Below, piece by piece: positions 2,356 through 60,894 of a stretch of DNA of 64,000 nucleotides. Made by a program: the position numbers and the translations under genes. The notes beneath the pieces were generated by a model that was not told where the DNA came from, did no database searches, and saw only the letters and a program-made list of their open reading frames with translations. Positions within the stretch are counted from its first letter, which is position 1. Every line of letters starts with the position of its first letter. The DNA comes from an uncultured Eubacteriales bacterium (GTDB lineage: Bacteria; Bacillota; Clostridia; TANB77; CAG-508): the NCBI GenBank assembly GCA_949294555.1, contig CASFHP010000004.1, positions 31,635 to 95,634 of the forward strand, given 5' to 3'.

Positions 2356-3054
2356 ATGAATAAAGATGTACTTATAGTTGTACCAGCATATAATGAAGAA
2401 AAAAATATAGAAAACACAATAAAAGATATAAAAGAAAATACAGCATATGATTATGTTATTATCAATGATTGTTCAACAGATAGTACAAAACAAATTTGTG
2501 AAAAAAATAAATTCAATCTAATAACATTACCGATAAATTCAGGACTAAGTAATGTTATTAGATTGGGAATGAAATATGCATATGAAGAAGGATATCAAAT
2601 TGTTTTACAATTTGATGGAGATGGACAACATGAAGCCAAATATATCAATATACTAGTAGATGAAATAAAAAATAATAATTGTGATATTGCAATAGGTTCA
2701 AGATTTTTGGAAGAAAAAAAGAAGAAAAATATAAGAATGATTGGTAGCAAGTTAATTTCTTTAGCAATAAAATTGACTACAGGAATAACGATAAAGGATC
2801 CTACATCAGGAATGAGAGCATATGGAAAAAAAGCAATTTATGAGTTTAATAAAAATTTGCATTTGGCGCCAGAGCCAGAGACATTAGTATATATGATAAA
2901 AAATAATATTACAATAAAGGAAATTCAAGTAAAAATGAAAGAAAGACAATACGGTGCAAGCTATTTAACATCGTTAAAATCTATAGAGTATATGTTAGAT
3001 ACATTATTTTCAATATTTTTTATACGAAATAGAAGAAGTAAGAAGGAGAAATGA
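2356..3054 (+). CDS. Family 2 glycosyltransferase (GT-A fold)
   Basis: The N-terminal VVPAYNEEKNI...INDCSTDST and the FDGDGQH (DxD-type) motif are present, with a good SD GGGAGAAAAAG. Confidence 0.85.
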   Translation: MNKDVLIVVPAYNEEKNIENTIKDIKENTAYDYVIINDCSTDSTKQICEKNKFNLITLPINSGLSNVIRLGMKYAYEEGYQIVLQFDGDGQHEAKYINILVDEIKNNNCDIAIGSRFLEEKKKKNIRMIGSKLISLAIKLTTGITIKDPTSGMRAYGKKAIYEFNKNLHLAPEPETLVYMIKNNITIKEIQVKMKERQYGASYLTSLKSIEYMLDTLFSIFFIRNRRSKKEK

Positions 3055-10022: not shown

Positions 10023-11624
10023 ATGAAAGACATTTGGAAGGCTTACAAAGATACGATTCTTGTTACAGGGATTGCTATTATATTTATAGTCTTTTTAATT
10101 ATACAACACCAATTTTTATATATGTATCATGATGATTATGGATATGCATCACTAAGTTATGCCTATCTAGTAGATGGGGTTAGTGGAACCAATTATTCTT
10201 TAGGACAGGTTTTTGAATTTTTAAGTGGACATTATCAAATATGGGGTGGAAGAATACTATATTTCTTCTTTGAGATTGTCCTACTAGGATATACAGGACT
10301 TGCAGGCTATAGAATTGTGCAAGCACTTGCCATATTCGGTATCTTTTTTGCAATGTATAAAATCATGCATAAACTTTTAGGAGACAAAGTGGAAAGATGG
10401 AAATTAGCCTTAACATGCATGCTATTATATGGTATTATAGAAATTATGACTTTCCGAACGGGAATATTTTGGATTACGGCAGCAGTATTATATATAATTC
10501 CGATTTTATTTTTATTTATTTATGTGTATGTATATATGTTCAAAATCAAAGGGGAACAAACAAATACGAAGGCAAAAAACATTCTATATATAACAATCAT
10601 GGGCATTTGTATCTTTTTAGCAACATTTTCACAAGAACAAGTAGGTGTTGCTAGTTTAATGTTTGTGCTAATCTATACAGTGTATAATGCAATTAAAAAT
10701 AAAAAGGTAAGTAAAATAGATATAGCGATGAGTGTCATTGCGATTATTGGTTTTGCCATTTTAATGCTAGCACCAGGAAATGAACTAAGAAAAGAACATC
10801 CAACAAGTATTGATTTTTATCAAAAGCCATTACTAGAAAGGACAATAGACGGAATTCAAGCAACGATTGAAGGGAATTTTGGAGAAAATAATAAAATTTT
10901 TGGACTTTTCTTCTTTACAACTGTATTGATAGCAAGTGTACAAAATATCAGAAAACGATATGGAATTAAATGGATGAACTATATAAGCTTATTATCAACA
11001 GCAGGAATAACTATGTTAATGTTCATCAAAACAGAAGGATATTTTAGTTATGTATATTCATTGGTACAAGGTCATAGATTGATTTTAATTGCTACCATTG
11101 GCTTTACGCTACTACAATTATTCTTCATTGCATATACAATTACGATGTATTTATGGAACAAAAAATCGGAAGGACTGATTAACCTCTTCTATTGTGCGAT
11201 TATTTCTCAAGGGGTTATGATTGTAGCACCATATTTTGCTTCTCGCTCAAGCATTGTATTTGAAATCCTATATTGTGTAATCGCACTAAAAATCATAGGA
11301 GACCTGTATAAGGAAAACGGTGCAAAACAAATAGTAACATGTATCATGATACCATTTTTAGTGATTTGTTTATTAAATATGCTTATTATTACAAAAGGCT
11401 ATTATGAAAATAGTCATGTGAATGCAGAAAATGACCAAAAGTTACGAGCTGTTTCTGAACAGATTGCGAATGGCGAAGAAATAACAGAAGTAACATTAAA
11501 ACAATTACCAAATATTTTATATAGTGGGGACCAACCATATACAGAAGGAAATGATTATATAAAATATTATATGAGACAATATTATAATTTACCAGAAAAC
11601 TTTGTTATCAATTATGAGGAATAA
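10023..11624 (+). CDS. Large polytopic membrane protein (possible GT-C glycosyltransferase or polymerase)
   Basis: 533 aa with about 13 hydrophobic helices and a GGAGGAGCAAGT SD. Function is inferred from context only. Confidence 0.6.
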   Translation: MKDIWKAYKDTILVTGIAIIFIVFLIIQHQFLYMYHDDYGYASLSYAYLVDGVSGTNYSLGQVFEFLSGHYQIWGGRILYFFFEIVLLGYTGLAGYRIVQALAIFGIFFAMYKIMHKLLGDKVERWKLALTCMLLYGIIEIMTFRTGIFWITAAVLYIIPILFLFIYVYVYMFKIKGEQTNTKAKNILYITIMGICIFLATFSQEQVGVASLMFVLIYTVYNAIKNKKVSKIDIAMSVIAIIGFAILMLAPGNELRKEHPTSIDFYQKPLLERTIDGIQATIEGNFGENNKIFGLFFFTTVLIASVQNIRKRYGIKWMNYISLLSTAGITMLMFIKTEGYFSYVYSLVQGHRLILIATIGFTLLQLFFIAYTITMYLWNKKSEGLINLFYCAIISQGVMIVAPYFASRSSIVFEILYCVIALKIIGDLYKENGAKQIVTCIMIPFLVICLLNMLIITKGYYENSHVNAENDQKLRAVSEQIANGEEITEVTLKQLPNILYSGDQPYTEGNDYIKYYMRQYYNLPENFVINYEE

Positions 11625-14727: not shown

Positions 14728-15669
14728 ATGGACAAAATATCTGTAATTATATCTTGCTATAATGAAGAACAAAGCATACCATTATTTTATAAAGAAATAG
14801 AACGTGTGAGAAAACAAGACTTTGCTGAAACAGAATTTGAATATATTTTTGTAAATGATGGTTCAAGAGACAAAACACTAGAAGAAATCAAAGAACTAAG
14901 ACAGCACGATGCAAAAGTACGATATATTTCATTTTCAAGGAATTTTGGGAAAGAAGCTGCTATGCTTGCAGGCTTAGAGCATGCAGAAGGTGACTATATT
15001 ACTTTAATGGATGCTGATTTACAAGACCCACCAGCTTTATTAAGAAAAATGTATGATTGCATAAAAAATGAAGGATATGATTGCGTAGCAACAAGAAGGG
15101 TAAATAGAAAAGGAGAGCCACCAATTAGAAGCTTTTTTGCAAGGATTTTCTATAAATTAATTAATAAAATGTCAAATGTAGAAATGGTAGATGGTGCAAG
15201 AGATTATCGATTAATGACAAGGCAAATGGTACAAGCTATTATTTCTGTAAAGGAATATAATCGTTATTCAAAAGGTATTTTTAGCTTTGTTGGATTTAAA
15301 ACCAAATGGTTAGAATATGAAAATGTCGAAAGAGTTGCAGGAGAAACAAAATGGTCTTTTTGGAAATTGTTTAAATACGCCATAGAAGGTATTACAGCAT
15401 TTTCTACAACACCATTAATGATATCTTCTGTTATAGGTTTACTATTTTGCTTTGTAGCTTTTATATTGATATTGTTTATTATCATAAGAACTTTAGTATA
15501 TGGAGACCCAACTTCTGGTTGGCCTTCTATGGTATGTATCATATTTTTTGTTAGTGGTATTCAATTATTTTCTTTGGGAATTATTGGACAATATTTGTCT
15601 AAGACATATCTTGAAGTGAAAAATAGACCAATTTATATCATAAAGGAAACAGAGAAAGATGAAAAATAA
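14728..15669 (+). CDS. Second GtrB/CsbB-like polyprenyl-phosphate glycosyltransferase (tandem paralogue)
   Basis: Motifs SVIISCYNEE, VNDGSRDKT, FSRNFGKEAA and DADLQDPP are present, with two C-terminal TM helices. It starts directly after the stop of the previous gene. Confidence 0.85.
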   Translation: MDKISVIISCYNEEQSIPLFYKEIERVRKQDFAETEFEYIFVNDGSRDKTLEEIKELRQHDAKVRYISFSRNFGKEAAMLAGLEHAEGDYITLMDADLQDPPALLRKMYDCIKNEGYDCVATRRVNRKGEPPIRSFFARIFYKLINKMSNVEMVDGARDYRLMTRQMVQAIISVKEYNRYSKGIFSFVGFKTKWLEYENVERVAGETKWSFWKLFKYAIEGITAFSTTPLMISSVIGLLFCFVAFILILFIIIRTLVYGDPTSGWPSMVCIIFFVSGIQLFSLGIIGQYLSKTYLEVKNRPIYIIKETEKDEK

Positions 15670-15671
15670 TT

Positions 15672-15942
15672 AAAAAATTTGTTACAATTAACAGTTTAAA
15701 TATCAAGTAAAATCAGAAACCAGTAATATATAAATATTTTATTCATTAAATGGCTAACATTACAGAATAAACAAATTATAATCTTATCAAGTGTAAAATC
15801 GCTGGCGTACCGCGACTTTTCCACTTGATAAGATAACAATTTGTAATATTCTTCCATTTGCACATTTAATTTCATAAAATATTTATATATTACTGGTTTC
15901 TGATTGTTTTAGAAATCGAATGTTAATTGTAACAAATTTTTT
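15672..15942 (+). repeat. Giant nested hairpin, copy A (149-nt conserved core 15734-15882 inside unique perfect arms)
   Basis: 15672-15693 pairs 22/22 with 15921-15942, and 15711-15740 pairs 30/30 with 15876-15905. The core is 146/149 identical to 24822-24970. Confidence 0.85.
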
Positions 15943-15958
15943 CTCCAAGTTCTTAGGA

Positions 15959-15990
15959 AAGTGCAGGAAAAGTCTTGTACTTTTTTGTTT
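15959..15990 (+). terminator. Rho-independent terminator
   Basis: The stem AAGTGCAGG/CTTGTACTT (9 bp, with two G:U pairs in the + sense) is followed by TTTTGTTTT. Confidence 0.7.
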
Positions 15991-17017: not shown

Positions 17018-17908
17018 ATGAAAAAGAGAAAAGGAATTATTTTAGCAGGAGGTAGTGGAACAAGATTATATCCATTAACACTTGCTATATCAAAACAAAT
17101 CATGCCAGTATATGATAAACCAATGATATATTATCCATTATCCGTATTAATGGAAGCAGAAGTAAGAGAAGTGTTAATTATATCAACACCTAGAGATATG
17201 CCTGTATTCAAAGAATTATTAGGCGATGGTTCTCAATGGGGAATGCATTTTGAATATAAAATTCAAGAAAAACCAAATGGATTAGCAGAAGCTTTTATCA
17301 TTGGTGCTGACTTTATCGGAGAAGATAATGTCGTTATGATTTTAGGAGATAATATGTTCTATGGTTCTCATTTGCCTGAAATTTTAAGAAGAGCTAGCAA
17401 AAGAGAAGATGAAGCAACAATTTTTGGATATTATGTAAAAGACCCAAGAGCCTATGGCGTAGTAGAAATTGACGAAAATGGAAAAGCAATTTCTATTGAA
17501 GAAAAACCAAAAGAACCAAAATCAAATTATGCAGTTCCAGGATTATATTTCTATACAAACGAAGTTGTAGAAATTGCAAAAGGTATTAAACCTTCTGCAA
17601 GAGGAGAATTAGAAATCACAACTGTTAATGATGAATATATGAAAATGAAAAAACTAACAGTAGAAAAATTAGGAAGAGGAATGACATGGTTTGATACAGG
17701 TACACATGATGCTTTATTAGAAACAGCAAGCTTTGTTCAAACTATTGAAAAAAGACAAGGAATGCAGGTTTGTTGCCCAGAAGAAATCGCCTTTAAGAAA
17801 GGTTGGATTTCAAGTGAAGAATTATTAGCTTTAGCACAAAAATATATGAAGACAGAATATGGTGTATATTTGAAAGATTTAGCAGAAAATAGATTTGGAA
17901 ATGAGTAA
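17018..17908 (+). CDS. rmlA: Glucose-1-phosphate thymidylyltransferase
   Basis: Motifs [17 protein letters not shown] and [14 protein letters not shown] are present. The start is set at ATG 17018 on SD spacing. Confidence 0.92.
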
Positions 17909-24191: not shown

Positions 24192-24740
24192 ATGAATGAA
24201 GTATTAACATCTAAAACTACGAAAGATAAAATAATAGAATATATAATATATTTTTTCATATATTCTTTTATAGGATGGTTGATAGAAACCATTTATGCTT
24301 TATTTGTACATGGTTATTTTGTAAAAAGAGGATTTCTATTTGGACCAATTTGTCCAATTTATGGCTTTGGAGCAGTATTACTATTATTAGCAACAAAAAA
24401 ACTATACAAAAAGCCGTTTTTGAAATTTTTAATTGCAACCATTGCTTTTACCTTATTTGAATATATGGTTTCTTTTATATTAGAAATGTTATTTGGATTA
24501 AGATGGTGGGATTACTCAAATGACTTTTTAAATATCCAAGGAAGAGTTAGTTTATTATACTCTATATTTTGGGGTGTTATCGGACTAATATTATTAGAAA
24601 AATTACACCCATACATACAAGATAAAATACAGAAAATAACCAAAGGAAACACAAATAATATTCAGAAAATTGTTTGTTTGGTTCTTGTTATTATATTAAT
24701 AGTAGATACTGTTTTTTCAGTGCTAAAATATCTACATTAA
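24192..24740 (+). CDS. PF06541-type (CmpB-like, putative ABC-transporter type IV) membrane protein, paralogue 1
   Basis: Motifs YSFIGWLIETIY, FLFGPICPIYGFGAV and RWWDYS are present. Confidence 0.75.
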   Translation: MNEVLTSKTTKDKIIEYIIYFFIYSFIGWLIETIYALFVHGYFVKRGFLFGPICPIYGFGAVLLLLATKKLYKKPFLKFLIATIAFTLFEYMVSFILEMLFGLRWWDYSNDFLNIQGRVSLLYSIFWGVIGLILLEKLHPYIQDKIQKITKGNTNNIQKIVCLVLVIILIVDTVFSVLKYLH

Positions 24741-24745
24741 TTTAT

Positions 24746-25047
24746 GTCCAATTGGGGACGTTTCTTTTTGAGACATTTTTATGTTAATATTAGTTTCTTA
24801 AATAATAAATAATGTATATCATATTTTATTCATTAAATGGCTATCATTACAAAATAAACAAATTATAATCTTATCAAGTGTAAAATCGCTGGCGCACCGC
24901 GACTTTTCCACTTGATAAGATAACAATTTGTAATATTCTTCCATTTGCACATTTAATTTCATAAAATATGATATACATTATTTATAGTTAGTAGCTTGAT
25001 ATGTTAACATAAAAATGTCTCGAAAAGAAACGTCTCTAATTGGACAA
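24746..25047 (+). repeat. Giant nested hairpin, copy B (core 24822-24970)
   Basis: 24746-24788 pairs with 25005-25047 over 43 positions; the 3 non-Watson-Crick pairs are all G:U in the + sense. The inner stem 24806-24828 pairs 23/23 with 24964-24986. Confidence 0.85.
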
Positions 25048-25142: not shown

Positions 25143-25213
25143 AGAAATGTAAGACAAAACAATTTGAACAAAGTAAGATGTCGTGTAAAATGATAATATA
25201 AGGGGTGGAGCAA

Positions 25214-25858
25214 ATGAAAAAAGAAAAATGGATAAATGAATGGATAAAATTATTCTGGGTATTCATTATTGGAAGTTTAATTGGATATGTTGTAGAAATG
25301 ATTGTAGGTTTAGTTCAAAATGGGCATTTTGTTTCAAGACAGGGACTACTATTTGGACCATTTGCACAAGTCTATGGATTAGGAATTTTGGCATATTATT
25401 TGATTGTTCCAAAAATTAAAGGTGGCTATGTAAAAATCTTTTTTGTCACAATGATATTAGGTGGCACTGTAGAATACTTATGTTCTTATTTTCAAGAGTT
25501 ATTATTTGGAACAATATCATGGGATTATTCTCACTTATGGTTTAATATAAATGGTAGGACAAGTTTATTGCATTGTACATATTGGGGAATAGGAGGCGTA
25601 TTGTTTATGAAATATGTATTGCCTATCATCAATCACATAGATAAAATTATTAAAAATCAATATTTTAGAACTATAACTGCATTATTTGCAATATTTATGA
25701 TATTTAACATATCTGTATCTTCAATGGCGGCTATTAGACAGGATGAAAGAAATCGTCAAATTGCTGCTTCAAATAATATTGATGTGTTTTTTGATAAATA
25801 TTATTCTGATGAAGTTATGGACACGATATACGAAAATAAAATAGAAGTGAAAAAATAG
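25214..25858 (+). CDS. PF06541-type membrane protein, paralogue 2
   Basis: Motifs IGSLIGYVVEMI, LLFGPFAQVYGLG and SWDYS are present. ATG 25214 sits behind an AAGGGGTGGAG SD. Confidence 0.75.
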   Translation: MKKEKWINEWIKLFWVFIIGSLIGYVVEMIVGLVQNGHFVSRQGLLFGPFAQVYGLGILAYYLIVPKIKGGYVKIFFVTMILGGTVEYLCSYFQELLFGTISWDYSHLWFNINGRTSLLHCTYWGIGGVLFMKYVLPIINHIDKIIKNQYFRTITALFAIFMIFNISVSSMAAIRQDERNRQIAASNNIDVFFDKYYSDEVMDTIYENKIEVKK

Positions 25859-36164: not shown

Positions 36165-38077
36165 CAATTGAATATTTATCAAAAGGGATAGAAGAGGAAA
36201 AAAAATTCCAAACATTACTTGGTGTTACAGGTTCTGGAAAAACATTCACAATGGCAAATATTATTCAAAAAGTACAAAAACCAACACTTGTTTTAGCACA
36301 TAATAAGACATTAGCAGGACAACTGTATTCCGAATTCAAAGAGTTTTTTCCAGAAAATAATGTGGAATATTTTGTTTCTTATTATGATTATTACCAGCCA
36401 GAAAGTTATATCCCACAATCAGATACGTATATAGAAAAAGATTCATCTGTAAATGACGAAATAGATAAGCTAAGACACTCTGCGACACTATCTTTATTTG
36501 AAACGAGAGATGTCATTATTGTAGCTTCTGTTTCTTGTATTTATGGTTTAGGAGACCCAGAAGATTATCAAGAAATGATGTTATCTTTAAGACCAGGCAT
36601 GCAAAAGGGAAGAGATGAGGTCTTGAAAAAATTAGTTACCATGCAATATACGAGAAATGAGATTGATTTCAAAAGAGGAACATTTAGGGCAAAAGGAGAT
36701 ATTGTAGAAATTTATCCATCTGACCAATCAGAATCTGCCATTAGGGTAGAATTTTGGGGAGATGAAATCGAAAAATTGGTAGAAATTAATCCATTAACAG
36801 GAAAAACAATAGGAACTAGACGTCATGTTCTGATTTCTCCAGCTTCTCACTATGTAACAACTAAAAGTAAAATGGAGAGGGCCATTACCACAATTGAAGA
36901 AGAATTGGAAGAAAGAATTAAATATTTTAAAGACCATAATAAATTGATTGAAGCACAAAGAATAGAAGAGAGAACCAATTTTGATATTGAAATGATGAAA
37001 GAAACTGGATTTTGTTCTGGAATTGAAAACTATTCAAGACATATTAGTGGCAGAAAACCAGGAAGTCCACCATATACCTTGTTTGATTATTTTCCAAAAG
37101 ATTTCTTATTATTAATTGATGAATCACATGCAACTATTCCACAAGTAAGAGCAATGTATAATGGAGACCATTCACGAAAAGAATCATTGGTTAATTATGG
37201 ATTTCGTTTACCTTCTGCATTTGACAATAGACCATTAACATTTGAAGAATTTGAAAAGAAATTAAATCAAGTTATATTTGTTAGTGCAACACCGGGAGAT
37301 TACGAAAAAGAACATAGCAAGGGAAATATTGTAGAACAAATTATTAGACCAACAGGATTACTAGACCCTAAAATTGAAGTAAAACCGGTAGAAAATCAAA
37401 TTGATGACTTGCTAGAGCAAATTCGTATTAGAGTTGAGAAAAATGAAAGGGTTTTAGTAACGACTTTAACCAAAAAGATGGCGGAAGATTTAACCGATTA
37501 TTTGAAAGGACTAGATATTAAAGTAACTTATATGCATTCAGATACAAAAACATTGGAAAGAATGGAAATTATCAGAAATCTTCGTTTAGGAGAATTTGAT
37601 GTATTAGTTGGTATCAACCTATTAAGAGAAGGTTTGGATATTCCAGAAGTATCTTTGGTTGCCATATTAGATGCTGACAAGGAAGGATTTTTACGTTCAG
37701 AGAGGTCTTTAATTCAAACGATTGGAAGGGCAGCTAGAAATACAGATGGAACTGTTATTATGTATGCAGATGAATTAACCGAAAGTATGGAAAAAGCTAT
37801 TTCAGAAACGAACAGGAGAAGAAGAATTCAGGAAGCATATAATGAAGAACATCATATAACACCAAAAACGATTAGAAAATCTGTACGTGATACGATTAAG
37901 GTTACCATTACAGATGATATTGGTGTAGAATATAAATTGGAAAAAGAAGAGGATATTAAAGATACAATTACAAAATTAACAGATGAGATGTTGAAATATG
38001 CGGCTGAAATGGAATTCGAAAAAGCTGCTGAATTACGTGATAAAATTAAAGAACTTGAAAAACTAGTTTCAGAATAA
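36116..38077 (+). CDS. uvrB: Excinuclease ABC subunit B
   Basis: Motifs [20 protein letters not shown], the helicase motifs and the C-terminal UVR domain [14 protein letters not shown] are present. Confidence 0.95.
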
Positions 38078-39931: not shown

Positions 39932-39943
39932 TTTATAAGAAAA

Positions 39944-39978
39944 GCGTGCGTTAACGAAATCAAAGATTTCGACGCACA
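39944..39978 (+). repeat. Intergenic repeat family R3 (nested hairpin)
   Basis: GCGTGCGTTAACGAAATCAAAGATTTCGACGCACA is 32/35 identical to 44788-44822. Both copies lie a few nt after a stop codon. Confidence 0.6.
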
Positions 39979-40019: not shown

Positions 40020-40097
40020 CTTAACCTTGTTGCCTTGTTGTATACGGAAAAATCCACATAGGGTCAAGATAAAAGACGATTTTTCCTATACAATAGG
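40020..40097 (+). repeat. Intergenic repeat family R1
   Basis: It aligns with 26071-26136. The stems TTGTATA-C-GGAAAAATC/GATTTTTCC-TATACAA enclose the conserved loop. Confidence 0.55.
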
Positions 40098-40163: not shown

Positions 40164-40206
40164 TTTACATAAAAATGTCTCGAACAGAAACGTCCCTAAT
40201 TGGACA
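40164..40206 (+). repeat. Repeat M1 (a half-palindrome identical in type to the arms of hairpin copy B)
   Basis: ACATAAAAATGTCTCGAACAGAAACGTCCCTAATTGGACA is 38/40 identical to 25008-25047. It ends 5 nt before the hydB SD. Confidence 0.6.
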
Positions 40207-40219
40207 AAAGGAGGAAAGT

Positions 40220-42079
40220 ATGAAAAGTCTAGAAGAAATTCACAAAATAAGAGAAGAAAAAAGAAAAGAGTTGGATTTAAGAGTAAATACAAAAGCAGAT
40301 ACCAGAGAGAAACATATTTTGGTATGTCATGGTACTGGTTGTACTTCTTCAAAATCACCTGAAATTTTAGAAAATTTTAGAAGAATTTTAAAAGAAAGAA
40401 ATATAACCAATGTAAGAGTTATCAAAACAGGTTGTTTTGGACTTTGTGCAAAAGGTCCAATTGTTATTATCAGACCAGAAGATACCTTTTATGCAATGGT
40501 TACACCAGAAGATTGTGAGGAAATTATTGATACCCATATTGTTAAAGGAGAAAGAGTAGAAAGATTACTTTGCAAAGATATAGATGGAACAGTTGTTAAT
40601 AGTTTAGATGAGTTAAACTTTTATAAAAAACAAAAAAGAATTGCACTTAAAAACTGTGGTGTTGTCAATCCAGAAGATATTGATGAGTACATAGCATTTG
40701 ATGGATATAAAGCATTAGAAAAAGTATTAAAAGAAATGACACAAGATGAGGTCATTGATGTTGTAAAAGAATCTGGCTTAAGAGGTAGAGGAGGCGCAGG
40801 TTTCCCTACAGGTAAGAAATGGGAACTTACCAAAGCGTCAGAAGGAGACCAAAAATACGTGGTTTGTAATGCTGATGAAGGAGACCCAGGTGCTTTCATG
40901 GATAGAAGTATCTTAGAAGGAGACCCTCATTCTGTATTAGAAGCTATGGAAATTGCAGGATATGCTATTGGAGCAAATAAAGGATATATCTATGTTAGAG
41001 CAGAATATCCAATTGCAGTTCAAAGATTAAAAATTGCCATCGAACAAGCAAGAGAATATGGACTATTGGGAGAAAACATTTTTGGAACAGACTTTAGTTT
41101 TGATATAGAAATTCGATTAGGTGCAGGAGCCTTTGTATGTGGAGAAGAAACAGCTTTGCTAGAATCTATTGAAGGAAAAAGAGGGCAACCAAGAGTAAAA
41201 CCACCATATCCAGCACAATCAGGATTATGGGGAAAACCAACTTTAATTAATAATGTTGAAACATATGCAAATATTGCCCAAATTATCCTAAAAGGTGCGA
41301 AATGGTATTCTTCAATTGGAACAGAAACATCAAAAGGAACAAAAGTATTTGCATTAGGTGGAAATGTTAATAATATTGGATTAGTAGAAGTACCAATGGG
41401 AACAACCCTAAGAGAAATTATCTATGACATTGGTGGAGGAATTCCTAATGGTAGAGAATTTAAAGCAGCACAAACAGGTGGACCTTCAGGAGGATGTATA
41501 CCTAAAGAACATCTAGATACACCGATTGACTATGAATCTCTAAAAGAAATTGGTTCTATGATGGGTTCAGGTGGATTAATTGTTATGGATGATACAAAAT
41601 GTATGGTAGCTTTAGCAAAATTCTATCTAGACTTTACAGTAAGCGAAAGTTGTGGTAAATGTACACCTTGTAGAATAGGAACAAAAAGAATGTTAGAAAT
41701 CTTAGAGAGACTATGTAATGGAGAAGGAGACGAACTAGATATCTATAAACTAGAAAAATTAGCAGCAAACATTCAAAAAGCAAGTATTTGTGGATTAGGG
41801 CAAACAGCACCAAACCCAGTTGTCAGTACTCTAAAATATTTTAGAGAAGAATTTAGACAACATGCTATCCAAAAAGAATGTCGAACACTAGAATGTAAAG
41901 CAATGGCAAAAATTACAATTAATGAAGAAAAATGTAAAGGTTGTGGCTTATGCCAAAAACATTGTCCAGTAAATGCCATAGACGGTTCTGGAAGAGACAA
42001 AAGAATTATCAACCAAGAAAAATGTATTAAATGTGGTACATGTATTGCAAGTTGTCCATTCCATGCAATAGGCAATTAG
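40220..42079 (+). CDS. hydB: NuoF-like NAD(H)/FMN-binding subunit of the [FeFe]-hydrogenase
   Basis: The start is set at ATG 40220 (SD AAAGGAGGAAAG). It has a thioredoxin-like N-domain, GLRGRGGAGFPTGKKW, CGKCTPCR and two C-terminal CxxCxxCxxxCP ferredoxin motifs. Confidence 0.88.
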   Translation: MKSLEEIHKIREEKRKELDLRVNTKADTREKHILVCHGTGCTSSKSPEILENFRRILKERNITNVRVIKTGCFGLCAKGPIVIIRPEDTFYAMVTPEDCEEIIDTHIVKGERVERLLCKDIDGTVVNSLDELNFYKKQKRIALKNCGVVNPEDIDEYIAFDGYKALEKVLKEMTQDEVIDVVKESGLRGRGGAGFPTGKKWELTKASEGDQKYVVCNADEGDPGAFMDRSILEGDPHSVLEAMEIAGYAIGANKGYIYVRAEYPIAVQRLKIAIEQAREYGLLGENIFGTDFSFDIEIRLGAGAFVCGEETALLESIEGKRGQPRVKPPYPAQSGLWGKPTLINNVETYANIAQIILKGAKWYSSIGTETSKGTKVFALGGNVNNIGLVEVPMGTTLREIIYDIGGGIPNGREFKAAQTGGPSGGCIPKEHLDTPIDYESLKEIGSMMGSGGLIVMDDTKCMVALAKFYLDFTVSESCGKCTPCRIGTKRMLEILERLCNGEGDELDIYKLEKLAANIQKASICGLGQTAPNPVVSTLKYFREEFRQHAIQKECRTLECKAMAKITINEEKCKGCGLCQKHCPVNAIDGSGRDKRIINQEKCIKCGTCIASCPFHAIGN

Positions 42080-44783: not shown

Positions 44784-44787
44784 AAAA

Positions 44788-44822
44788 GCATGCATTAACG
44801 AAATCAAAGATTTTGACGCACA
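44788..44822 (+). repeat. Intergenic repeat family R3
   Basis: See 39944-39978. Confidence 0.6.
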
Positions 44823-45062: not shown

Positions 45063-45527
45063 TTAATTATCAAAAAGATAATATTTCTTTAAAGCTATTA
45101 AAATTTTTTCATAGTCCATATTAGATAAAAAAGCTATTTTTTTATTATAAAAAAACGGCTCTCGTATTCTTTTGTAGCTAAAGTTAGCCATAGATTCTAA
45201 TTTTGCAGTACTACAAGGCAGAGAATGTATATCACAGTGAAAATAATATTTATCATTGAAACACTTACTACTTAAAGGAATTACAGTCCACATTTTTTTA
45301 TCCGAAGAAGAACGCCATAGAATAGCAGGTCTTAACTTTCTTATTTCGGAACCAATGTTTTGACCAAAATCCACCCAAACAATAGACCTAGGTTTTAATG
45401 AAAAGATATCTATATTTTGTTCTTCTAATAAAAGTTTATCATAATACCATTTTAGATATTTAATTTCTTCTATATTTTTATAATCAATTTTTTTATCTAA
45501 TTTTTTCAATAGAGAAATTTTTAGCAA
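45063..45527 (-). CDS. PemK/MazF-fold toxin-like protein with a roughly 45-aa N-terminal extension
   Basis: The pattern RSIVWVDFGQNIGSEIRKLRPAILW...WTVIPLSSK is MazF/PemK-like. It has a TTG start without a convincing SD. Confidence 0.65.
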   Translation of the reverse strand: MLKISLLKKLDKKIDYKNIEEIKYLKWYYDKLLLEEQNIDIFSLKPRSIVWVDFGQNIGSEIRKLRPAILWRSSSDKKMWTVIPLSSKCFNDKYYFHCDIHSLPCSTAKLESMANFSYKRIREPFFYNKKIAFLSNMDYEKILIALKKYYLFDN

Positions 45528-60779: not shown

Positions 60780-60894
60780 TAATTTGATGACTTTGGGGAC
60801 GGAGCAAAAAATCATCATTTATATAAAGATTTTTATAAAACTTCTTATAAAATAAATGATGATTTTTTGCTCCGTCCCCAAAGTCATCAAATTA
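60780..60894. repeat. Perfect 43-bp inverted repeat with a 29-nt loop
   Basis: 60780-60822 is the exact reverse complement of 60852-60894. The loop contains TATAAA three times. Confidence 0.9.

Follow-up and report, generated by a model that had tools for sequence, protein, structure and literature searches.

The window analysed here is a stretch of 64,000 nucleotides (nt) from an uncultured bacterium of the Clostridia, with a G+C content of 28%, nearly all genes on the + strand and a strong positive GC skew. It carries two giant hairpins, loci A and B, in which almost the same central sequence, the core, sits inside unrelated self-complementary arms. We conclude that the core forms a repeat family, new but of a familiar sort, in a gut-type lineage of uncultured Clostridia, and not a new class of RNA gene. 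The giant hairpins are probably nests of non-autonomous, hairpin-dependent palindromic mobile elements of the type represented by miniature inverted-repeat transposable elements (MITEs) and REPINs.

Locus A follows an open reading frame (ORF) at 14728-15669. A first-pass annotation, made from the letters of the window, had placed the hairpin in a position like that of a 3' untranslated region (3'UTR), and this was borne out: the stop codon (15667-15669) is followed by the element and then by a terminator-like hairpin. The features of the two loci, and of a solo arm related to locus B, are the following.

15672-15942 (+): composite element A, made of type-A outer arms, inner arms and core; ~271 nt, folding as one hairpin
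15672-15693 (+): outer left arm of A, with the type-A terminal repeat GTTACAATTAACA from 15681; 22/22 paired with 15921-15942
15711-15740 (+): inner left arm of A, AATCAGAAACCAGTAATATATAA plus the start of the core; 30/30 paired with 15876-15905
15734-15882 (+): core copy A, an asymmetric "shell" (~15736-15782 and 15833-15880) around a central stem and tip
15783-15832 (+): central 11-bp stem and GC-rich tip hairpin (AAAATCGC-T-GG CGTA CC GCGA-C-TTTT)
15876-15905 (+): inner right arm of A, pairing with 15711-15740
15921-15942 (+): outer right arm of A, TGTTAATTGTAAC plus an A/T run; complementary to 15672-15693
15954-15987 (+): intrinsic terminator of the host, a terminator-like hairpin 3' of element A and outside it
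24745-25046 (+): composite element B, made of type-B outer arms, inner arms and core; ~302 nt
24745-24790 (+): left outer arm of type B, TGTCCAATTGGGGACGTTTCTTTTTGAGACATTTTTATGTTAATAT; 46 nt, pairing with 25001-25046 at 91%
24805-24829 (+): inner left arm of B, ATAAATAATGTATATC and the first letters of the core; 25/25 paired with 24961-24985
24821-24969 (+): core copy B, matching core copy A and the family profile
24961-24985 (+): inner right arm of B, pairing with 24805-24829
25001-25046 (+): type-B outer right arm, pairing with 24745-24790
40164-40207 (+): solo type-B arm with neither partner arm nor core; 93% identical to 25004-25047

The two core copies (15734-15882 and 24821-24969) are identical at 146 of 149 positions, with no indels and with substitutions at 15757, 15765 and 15808. 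The match had been reported correctly in the first-pass annotation, except that its second interval (24822-24970) was off by one. Recomputed complementarity reproduced the 30/30 and 22/22 arms of locus A. The description given there of the GC-rich tip, with its T/C loop difference at 15808, and of the central stem (CTTATCAAGTG/CACTTGATAAG) was also correct. Folded as single-stranded DNA, locus A reached -75.2 kcal/mol and locus B -83.9 kcal/mol (z = -16.3 for each), and no shuffled sequence equalled either value. The expected number of chance occurrences of the 50-nt core pattern was 0.00. In the outer-arm pair of composite B, all four mismatches are G-T on the + strand. The solo arm ends beside the ribosome-binding site (GGAGG) of a gene starting at 40220, and may either affect the start of translation or represent a decayed element.

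The core family and its host arms

Our copy set comprises the window and 48 retrieved loci (given L-numbers), with ~286 kb of related sequence. The core family occupies ~20 loci, all within a few related uncultured Clostridia. When the tip sequence was scanned against one genome per species (185,579 species), the 12 true matches all fell in two metagenome-assembled genomes (MAGs), BRZ_BI bin48 and BRZ_DE bin90. Many of these matches lay at contig ends, as expected because repeats break assemblies. Both window loci are present in bin48 (L005/L012 for A and L007 for B), with flanks 91-97% identical. Copies seem to be few, with at least 6-7 in each MAG. A profile of the translation of a minus-strand ORF through the core recovered 20 ORF calls in ENA assemblies, without name or domain; the DNA of eleven of these calls, together with one JGI match (L045), gave about ten further loci. 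Copies reached through this protein search are biased towards intact frames.

An nhmmer profile of the family found exactly two copies in the window and had no match in 80 kb of sequence from relatives further removed. Core copy A scored 141.9 bits on the + strand and 31.9 bits on the - strand. With ~140 bits on one strand against ~32 on the other, the core is oriented despite its palindromy. In the JGI metagenomes, the tip pattern had no match and the shell pattern one true match (L045) plus two chance matches. Scanning viral contigs with the tip gave five matches, all by chance in coding or GC-rich DNA, and BLASTN of the core, composite A and a core-less type-B element against plasmids and phages gave chance AT-rich matches only. 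At gathering thresholds, the whole 64 kb had no match in Rfam; in E-value mode, the element matched only generic long-hairpin plant microRNA precursors, at 35 bits where the gathering score is 211. The earlier statement that the element fits no known RNA class is thus upheld as far as Rfam goes.

Loci A and B indeed have no sequence in common outside the core, as first noted, but their arms are not unique: each arm type recurs elsewhere. Type A has a 14-bp terminal repeat (GTTACAATTNACAG...CTGTNAATTGTAAC) and an 8-bp target duplication. Its outer arms enclose cores in L002, L009, L011 and L030, its inner arm (CCAGTAATATATAA) recurs in L002, L009 and L030, and the terminus seen in the outer left arm of A is also found in L002, L009, L030, L036 and L037. 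The type-A flanks in L002 are TACCATAT/TACTATAT. In type B, the terminal repeat measures 43 bp and opens with TGTCCAATTGGGGACG, in an arm of 43-46 nt beginning TGTCCAATTGGGGACGTTTC; the architecture of locus B recurs in L004, L008, L014, L020 and L033-L035. Type D, which is more external, begins GAGACAGTTTGGGACAGG, has inverted repeats of ~58-95 nt and encloses cores in L013, L045, L047 and L048, where up to three or four layers are nested. The order of the layers is the same at unrelated loci, so composites most simply move as units via their outermost termini.

Both host types of the window also occur without a core. A core-less type-B element in L002 (6381-6528) has 148 nt, with perfect 42-43-bp terminal repeats around a non-palindromic interior of 62 nt. 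A core-less type-A element of 70 nt in L036 (12889-12970) is flanked by a perfect 8-bp direct duplication (ATCTAAAA). The core's own arms vary between copies, and in L010/L001 the core unit stands without a recognisable host repeat. The first-pass annotation had called a conserved centre in variable flanks the reverse of a MITE. This does not hold, since the flanks are the conserved termini of other repeat families, types A and B, which are found without the core as well.

One further repeat in the window touches these arm families. At 60780-60894, between divergent genes, lies a perfect 43-bp inverted repeat (TAATTTGATGACTTTGGGGACGGAGCAAAAAATCATCATTTAT) with a 29-nt interior, which has a TTGGGGAC motif in common with the type-B and type-D arms.

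Conserved shell, variable tip and preserved pairing

The first-pass annotation had treated the GC-rich tip as the conserved heart of the element. In the window and the 12 matches of the two MAGs, the tip is invariant save for one loop base (T at 15808, C elsewhere). In more distant copies it is diverged or replaced, and the earlier view fails. The altered copies are L020, L034, L035, L030-L033 and L045: L020 has AAATCGCTAGTATACTGCGAC, with GG/CC changed to AG/CT, L034 and L035 have AAATTGCTGGCGCACCGCAGAT, and different tip hairpins are found in L030-L033 (CTCTCACAGCAAGTCTGAGA) and L045 (CTCTCAAATTAGGCAATTCGAGA). Sequence conservation lies in the shell that borders the tip on either side (ATTTTATTCATTAAATGGCTRRCATTAC...AATATACAAATTCTAAC and AGAATTTGTAATATTYYTYCATTWGCACATTTAATYTCATAAAAT), with its asymmetric internal loops.

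Pairing statistics were computed on an alignment of 12 distinct core copies (A3). Standard pairs made up 97.2% of the 752 pair cells. Double changes occurred in 16 of 63 pairs, compared with a shuffle mean of 7.6, and none of 500 shuffles reached 16; sliding the partner columns by 1-3 positions reduced pairing to 40-50%. Counted by cell, there were 38 double changes and ~5 single changes. The three nucleotides just outside the shell vary from copy to copy and match their complement in every case (cat/atg, aat/att, aaa/ttt, gct/agc, tct/aga). The clearest case is that of the orthologous copies L014 and L020, whose flanks are 87-96% identical and which differ by six compensatory double changes but only two single changes. 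We conclude that pairing is actively preserved.

This preservation may come from selection on a DNA or RNA hairpin or from correction of one arm by the other. Wobble pairs are rare (~0.7% of cells) and G-T and A-C mismatches are balanced (5 and 6 cells in A3, 7 and 8 in the arms), so the data single out no RNA strand. Within the core helices, six of seven double changes are of the transition type, with G-U intermediates at pair 88-104; stepwise compensation is therefore possible.

Mobility, orientation and alternative explanations

Composite A is absent from an orthologous site. The glycosyltransferase gene upstream of locus A has orthologues with 97% identity in L036-L038, where synteny with the window extends over ~19 kb. 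Between the glycosyltransferase and RmlD genes of these relatives, TTTTT comes right after the stop codon, with the same terminator directly behind it, and a block of 266 nt (15671-15936 in the alignment) is missing. Composite A is thus a unit of insertion or deletion and not a conserved 3'UTR structure of that gene. We infer from this comparison that it was probably inserted in the window lineage. The terminator of locus A differs from that of L036 (~10950-10975) by two A-to-G changes in the left arm (AAGTGCAGG versus AAGTACAAG); its RNA stem is kept because each change turns an A-U pair into a G-U pair.

Type A moved recently: L036 and L037 are 99.86% identical, and L037 alone carries a core-less type-A insertion of 125 nt, flanked by a perfect 8-bp duplication (ACTAAAAG). 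Decayed copies are found too, in L004 (~2860-3000), in L047, which lacks the tip and right stem, and in L048, which has an insertion in the tip. A second segment of ~170 nt in L037 (~17310-17480), in the same intergenic region, has no counterpart in L036 and is non-palindromic.

At locus B, the relative differs in gene content, lacking the 217-amino-acid CmpB paralogue, and affords no clean empty-site comparison. The ORFs at 24192-24740 and 25205-25858 match the CmpB family (PF06541). A further ORF at 29204-30121, outside the Pfam scan, has the same conserved DNA blocks as these two. L036 and L037 lack both the middle ORF (25205-25858) and composite B.

Every core copy is intergenic. Neighbouring genes include those of the rhamnose pathway, asd, feoAB, spoIIIA and the ftsZ region. 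In tandem gene contexts, the + strand of the core is the sense strand at eight loci and antisense at one (L014/L020, flanked by VanW and MatE genes); convergent and divergent gene pairs also have copies between them, and both orientations occur. Since genes follow the leading strand, this bias could reflect either transcription or replication. In L030 (1627-1885), a composite of type A and core lies between metallophosphoesterase and TraG/VirD4-type coupling-protein genes, which places it inside or beside a conjugative element.

Searches for a mobilizing enzyme were negative within their scope. No transposase domain was found in 20 window ORFs or annotated neighbours, no REP-associated tyrosine transposase (RAYT) among the annotated neighbours of copies, and no arm pairs at insertion-sequence-like spacing (1-3 kb) in the ~286 kb. 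A promoter scan returned no more promoter-like sites than shuffled sequences did, and the tip fails a simple terminator rule, its tail being only TTTT.

The explanation that we hold to be probable, nested mobile elements, would work as follows. The innermost unit is an oriented hairpin of ~145 nt with a conserved asymmetric shell, a variable tip and variable complementary arms. This unit has come to lie in the middle of three or more families of host repeats, unrelated to one another and each with long terminal inverted repeats, and each nested composite would then spread as a unit via its outermost termini, presumably with transposase supplied in trans. Spread after nesting accounts for cores of 98% identity at two sites 9 kb from each other, in arms that are unrelated. 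The fold-back form, as a single-stranded DNA hairpin or cruciform and possibly as RNA, may be needed for propagation, or may be kept by arm-to-arm correction. The elements would be essentially selfish and would be tolerated between genes, in 3'UTRs and within other repeats; where transcribed, the long hairpin would serve as a substrate of the RNase III type. The first-pass annotation had listed a small element inserting into hairpin loops among its candidates. That was the closest of them, as mobile-type DNA is indeed nested inside palindromes; what it had missed is that the arms belong to other repeat families.

Several observations weigh against nested mobile elements. The ~286 kb of related sequence yielded neither an autonomous element nor a transposase with matching termini. 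Locus A shows no clean direct target duplication, its flanks (AAAAATTT/AAATTTTT) being inverted complements in an A/T run; type-B elements show no consistent duplication, and neither does the core unit. The core-less type-A elements carry a possible remnant of the right end of the shell (GCATCCTATAAAATAAT), a short and AT-rich sequence; they might be deletion derivatives rather than empty hosts. The empty-site relative leaves some room for a deletion there, its DNA being 83-90% identical. Finally, in both host types the core is only 1-5 nt away from the geometric centre, and simple nesting in a "safe haven" predicts neither this central position nor the conservation of the asymmetric internal loops nor the 8:1 orientation bias relative to flanking genes.

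The conserved loops and the orientation bias would suit an exapted structured RNA module that acts in intergenic or 3'UTR transcripts as an RNase III site, mRNA stabiliser or transcription barrier, with selection on the RNA hairpin keeping both pairing and asymmetric loops. Of the alternatives this one survives best, and we still consider it unlikely. Locus A should be transcribed, lying between stop codon and terminator; the core is in sense in eight tandem loci versus one; and, as in functional RNAs, loops are conserved in sequence while helices co-vary. The four G-T mismatches between the outer arms of composite B would turn into G-U at the RNA level, the predominance of transitions and the G-U intermediates at pair 88-104 point the same way, and Correia elements, repeat hairpins cleaved by RNase III, provide a precedent (PMC2649163). 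However, the element is absent beside a gene with a 97%-identical product in the relative and is thus dispensable for that operon. It also occurs in both orientations and in convergent and divergent contexts, the balance of G-T and A-C mismatches and the ~0.7% wobble favour no strand, and Rfam has no match. The orientation bias may equally follow the replication strand, as + is the leading strand by GC skew.

The central position of the core would be explained differently if it homed to hairpin apexes, inserting at the apex of extruded DNA hairpins or cruciforms of other palindromic repeats, with arm complementarity made or restored in the DNA by templated copying (fold-back synthesis, mismatch correction in the hairpin or inverted duplication of flanks), which we regard as distinctly unlikely. 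Two unrelated hosts carry the core 1-5 nt from their middle; the core occurs in at least three host families with up to three or four layers, and is bordered by three nucleotides that differ yet stay complementary; double changes outnumber single ones by 38 to ~5 cells. The flanks outside the type-A terminal repeat of locus A are inverted complements (AAAAAATTT/AAATTTTTT) and not direct repeats, and insertion sequences that target repetitive extragenic palindromic (REP) sequences are known (PMC1525189). Against this, one nesting per host type followed by composite spread accounts for most copies, and the inter-layer spacers of type-B composites look related by descent. A short interior between long terminal repeats makes any insertion roughly central, and inverted flanks are weak evidence in A/T runs. 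No enzyme candidate was found, and L010/L001 have the core unit without a recognisable host. In its most explicit form, to which we give as little credence, the core would home through fold-back single-stranded DNA, one arm templating the other, and so grow "Russian-doll" hairpins without RNA selection; the shell would then be the site of a strand-specific enzyme, which would account for the 8:1 bias along the leading strand.

A site that acts in single-stranded DNA (a single-strand origin, an origin of transfer or an attC-like site), read as a folded strand with extrahelical bases, is very improbable. The conserved hairpin structure, asymmetric bulges and variable tip do resemble the logic of attC by analogy, the L030 copy adjoins the TraG/VirD4 coupling-protein gene, and the orientation bias runs along the leading strand. 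Copies are single and dispersed among housekeeping genes, though; they form no cassette arrays, none adjoins an integrase, relaxase or Rep gene, and plasmids and phages gave no matches. The origin proposed by the first-pass annotation (sso/oriT) was therefore left unsupported, its copies lying in dispersed chromosomal housekeeping contexts and the plasmid and phage searches being empty.

That the minus-strand frame over the core (MKLNVQMEEYYKLLSYQVEKSRCASDFTLDKIIICLFCN.SHLMNKI) encodes a small protein of ~47 amino acids is hardly credible: although the frame is open in most copies, was predicted by gene callers as 20 metagenome proteins and survives an alternative tip and a 12-nt duplication, it has in-frame stops in L014 and L001, no start codon in L010, no ribosome-binding site in most copies, ends that shift with the arms, and no Pfam domain or name. 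Variable sites are spread over codon positions as 14/13/17, like the other two frames, and the pooled ratio of nonsynonymous to synonymous polymorphism (pN/pS) is 0.54, with amino-acid changes that mirror paired nucleotide changes. We rejected the frame as a coding gene on the stops, the even spread over codon positions, the pN/pS ratio and the tracking of pairs.

The ENA calls P0001-P0020, 20 predicted "proteins" of 47-111 amino acids, are minus-strand translations of the repeat and its arms and very probably annotation artefacts.

Nesting followed by spread of the composites explains how identical centres come to lie inside unrelated perfect arms. Several new repeat families (core, A, B and D) are thereby defined in a lineage of uncultured Clostridia, where they fragment assemblies; the core also misleads gene callers, with 20 spurious "proteins" in public databases as a result. 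Pairing preserved even between orthologous copies offers a natural system for setting hairpin selection, on DNA or RNA, against arm-to-arm correction, and the conserved asymmetric shell and the orientation bias raise its value for this question of hairpin maintenance. Long 3'UTR hairpins of this kind can alter mRNA processing and operon expression. Homing to apexes with templated arms, if true, would be a mode of transposition and maintenance not described for bacterial repeats.

Other repeats were noticed in the window. A 39-nt repeat at 39940-39978 and 44784-44822 (92% identical), each copy a few bases after a stop codon, is a nested palindrome (GTGCGT-TAACGAAATC-AAA-GATTTCG-ACGCAC) and represents either another small palindromic family or a common terminator-like module. 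An intergenic inverted-repeat family around GGAAAAATCG/CGATTTTTCC occurs at 25937-25965/26112-26140 and ~40040-40095, with a similar motif in L036 near 19150. Fifty nucleotides at 35077-35126 and 36115-36164 (98% identical) stand at the starts of adjacent ORFs (35078-36106, 342 amino acids; 36116-38077, 653 amino acids), whose same first ~16 codons suggest partial gene duplication or a split gene. The 1046-amino-acid ORF at 30197-33337, probably a repetitive surface protein, contains tandem 6/12-nt repeats at 32947-33084 (AATACAAACAC-like) and four internal repeats of ~52 nt. A PemK/MazF-like toxin ORF at 45063-45527 on the - strand (PF02452, E 2.5e-10) is the only type II toxin-antitoxin element noticed in the window.

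Comparison with known systems

Bacterial MITEs include Nezha, Chunjie, Correia/CREE, ERIC and RUP elements (reviewed in PMC3184786). The composites resemble them in being small (271 and 302 nt, with a core of ~145 nt, within the limit of under ~600 bp), non-coding and multi-copy, with ~20 dispersed loci and presence/absence between relatives. They lie in intergenic regions or within operons, are tolerated between stop codon and terminator, and can form a hairpin over their whole length. Terminal inverted repeats are conserved (type A, GTTACAATTNACAG/CTGTNAATTGTAAC; type B, 43 bp), whereas the arms of the core unit vary, and core-less type A has its 8-bp target duplication, with no consistent counterpart in type B or the core unit. 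They differ from MITEs in that the most conserved common part is central and not terminal, in their three to four concentric palindromic layers, at most, from unrelated families, in the extensive compensatory evolution of the arms, and in having no cognate autonomous insertion sequence with the same termini in the ~286 kb, a weak negative at this coverage.

Correia/CREE elements are marked by 26-bp terminal repeats, a TA duplication, a site for IHF and a Neisseria host. The elements described here do not match them, having no sequence relation, another host and, in type A, an 8-bp duplication. Correia elements are instead the parallel for the likely consequences at the RNA level (PMC2649163).

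Plasmid single-strand origins and origins of transfer are not matched, as copies are multiple and chromosomal, with only L030 near a TraG-like gene. Integron attC sites have conserved R and L boxes at their base, measure 57-141 nt and form cassette arrays beside intI. The core is similar in its imperfect palindrome, asymmetric extrahelical positions and variable terminal structure, and by analogy structure-based recognition would apply; it differs in that copies stand singly between housekeeping genes with no integrase nearby. Elements of the IS200/IS605 type insert 3' of a fixed tetra- or pentanucleotide; they have subterminal hairpins and the Y1 transposase TnpA, but neither terminal inverted repeats nor a target duplication. 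The orientation bias of the core is compatible with derivatives of such elements but not specific to them.

IS1397, ISKpn1 and IS110-family elements insert in REP sequences (PMC1525189). As in our composites, a mobile element inside another palindromic repeat yields nested palindromes; those elements encode a transposase, whereas the inserted unit here is a 145-nt non-coding hairpin.

REPINs consist of two conserved flanking REP 16-mers around a variable spacer, measure ~70-100 nt, reach hundreds of copies and are linked to a RAYT, and single-stranded DNA hairpin intermediates have been proposed for them (PMC3116915). The core family differs in being conserved at the centre, in its low copy number and in having no RAYT among annotated neighbours. 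In both, the hairpin is the replicative unit, changes are compensated on the two sides, and solo arms resemble decayed remnants; REPINs are thus the closest parallel for the compensatory evolution of these hairpins (PMC3116915).

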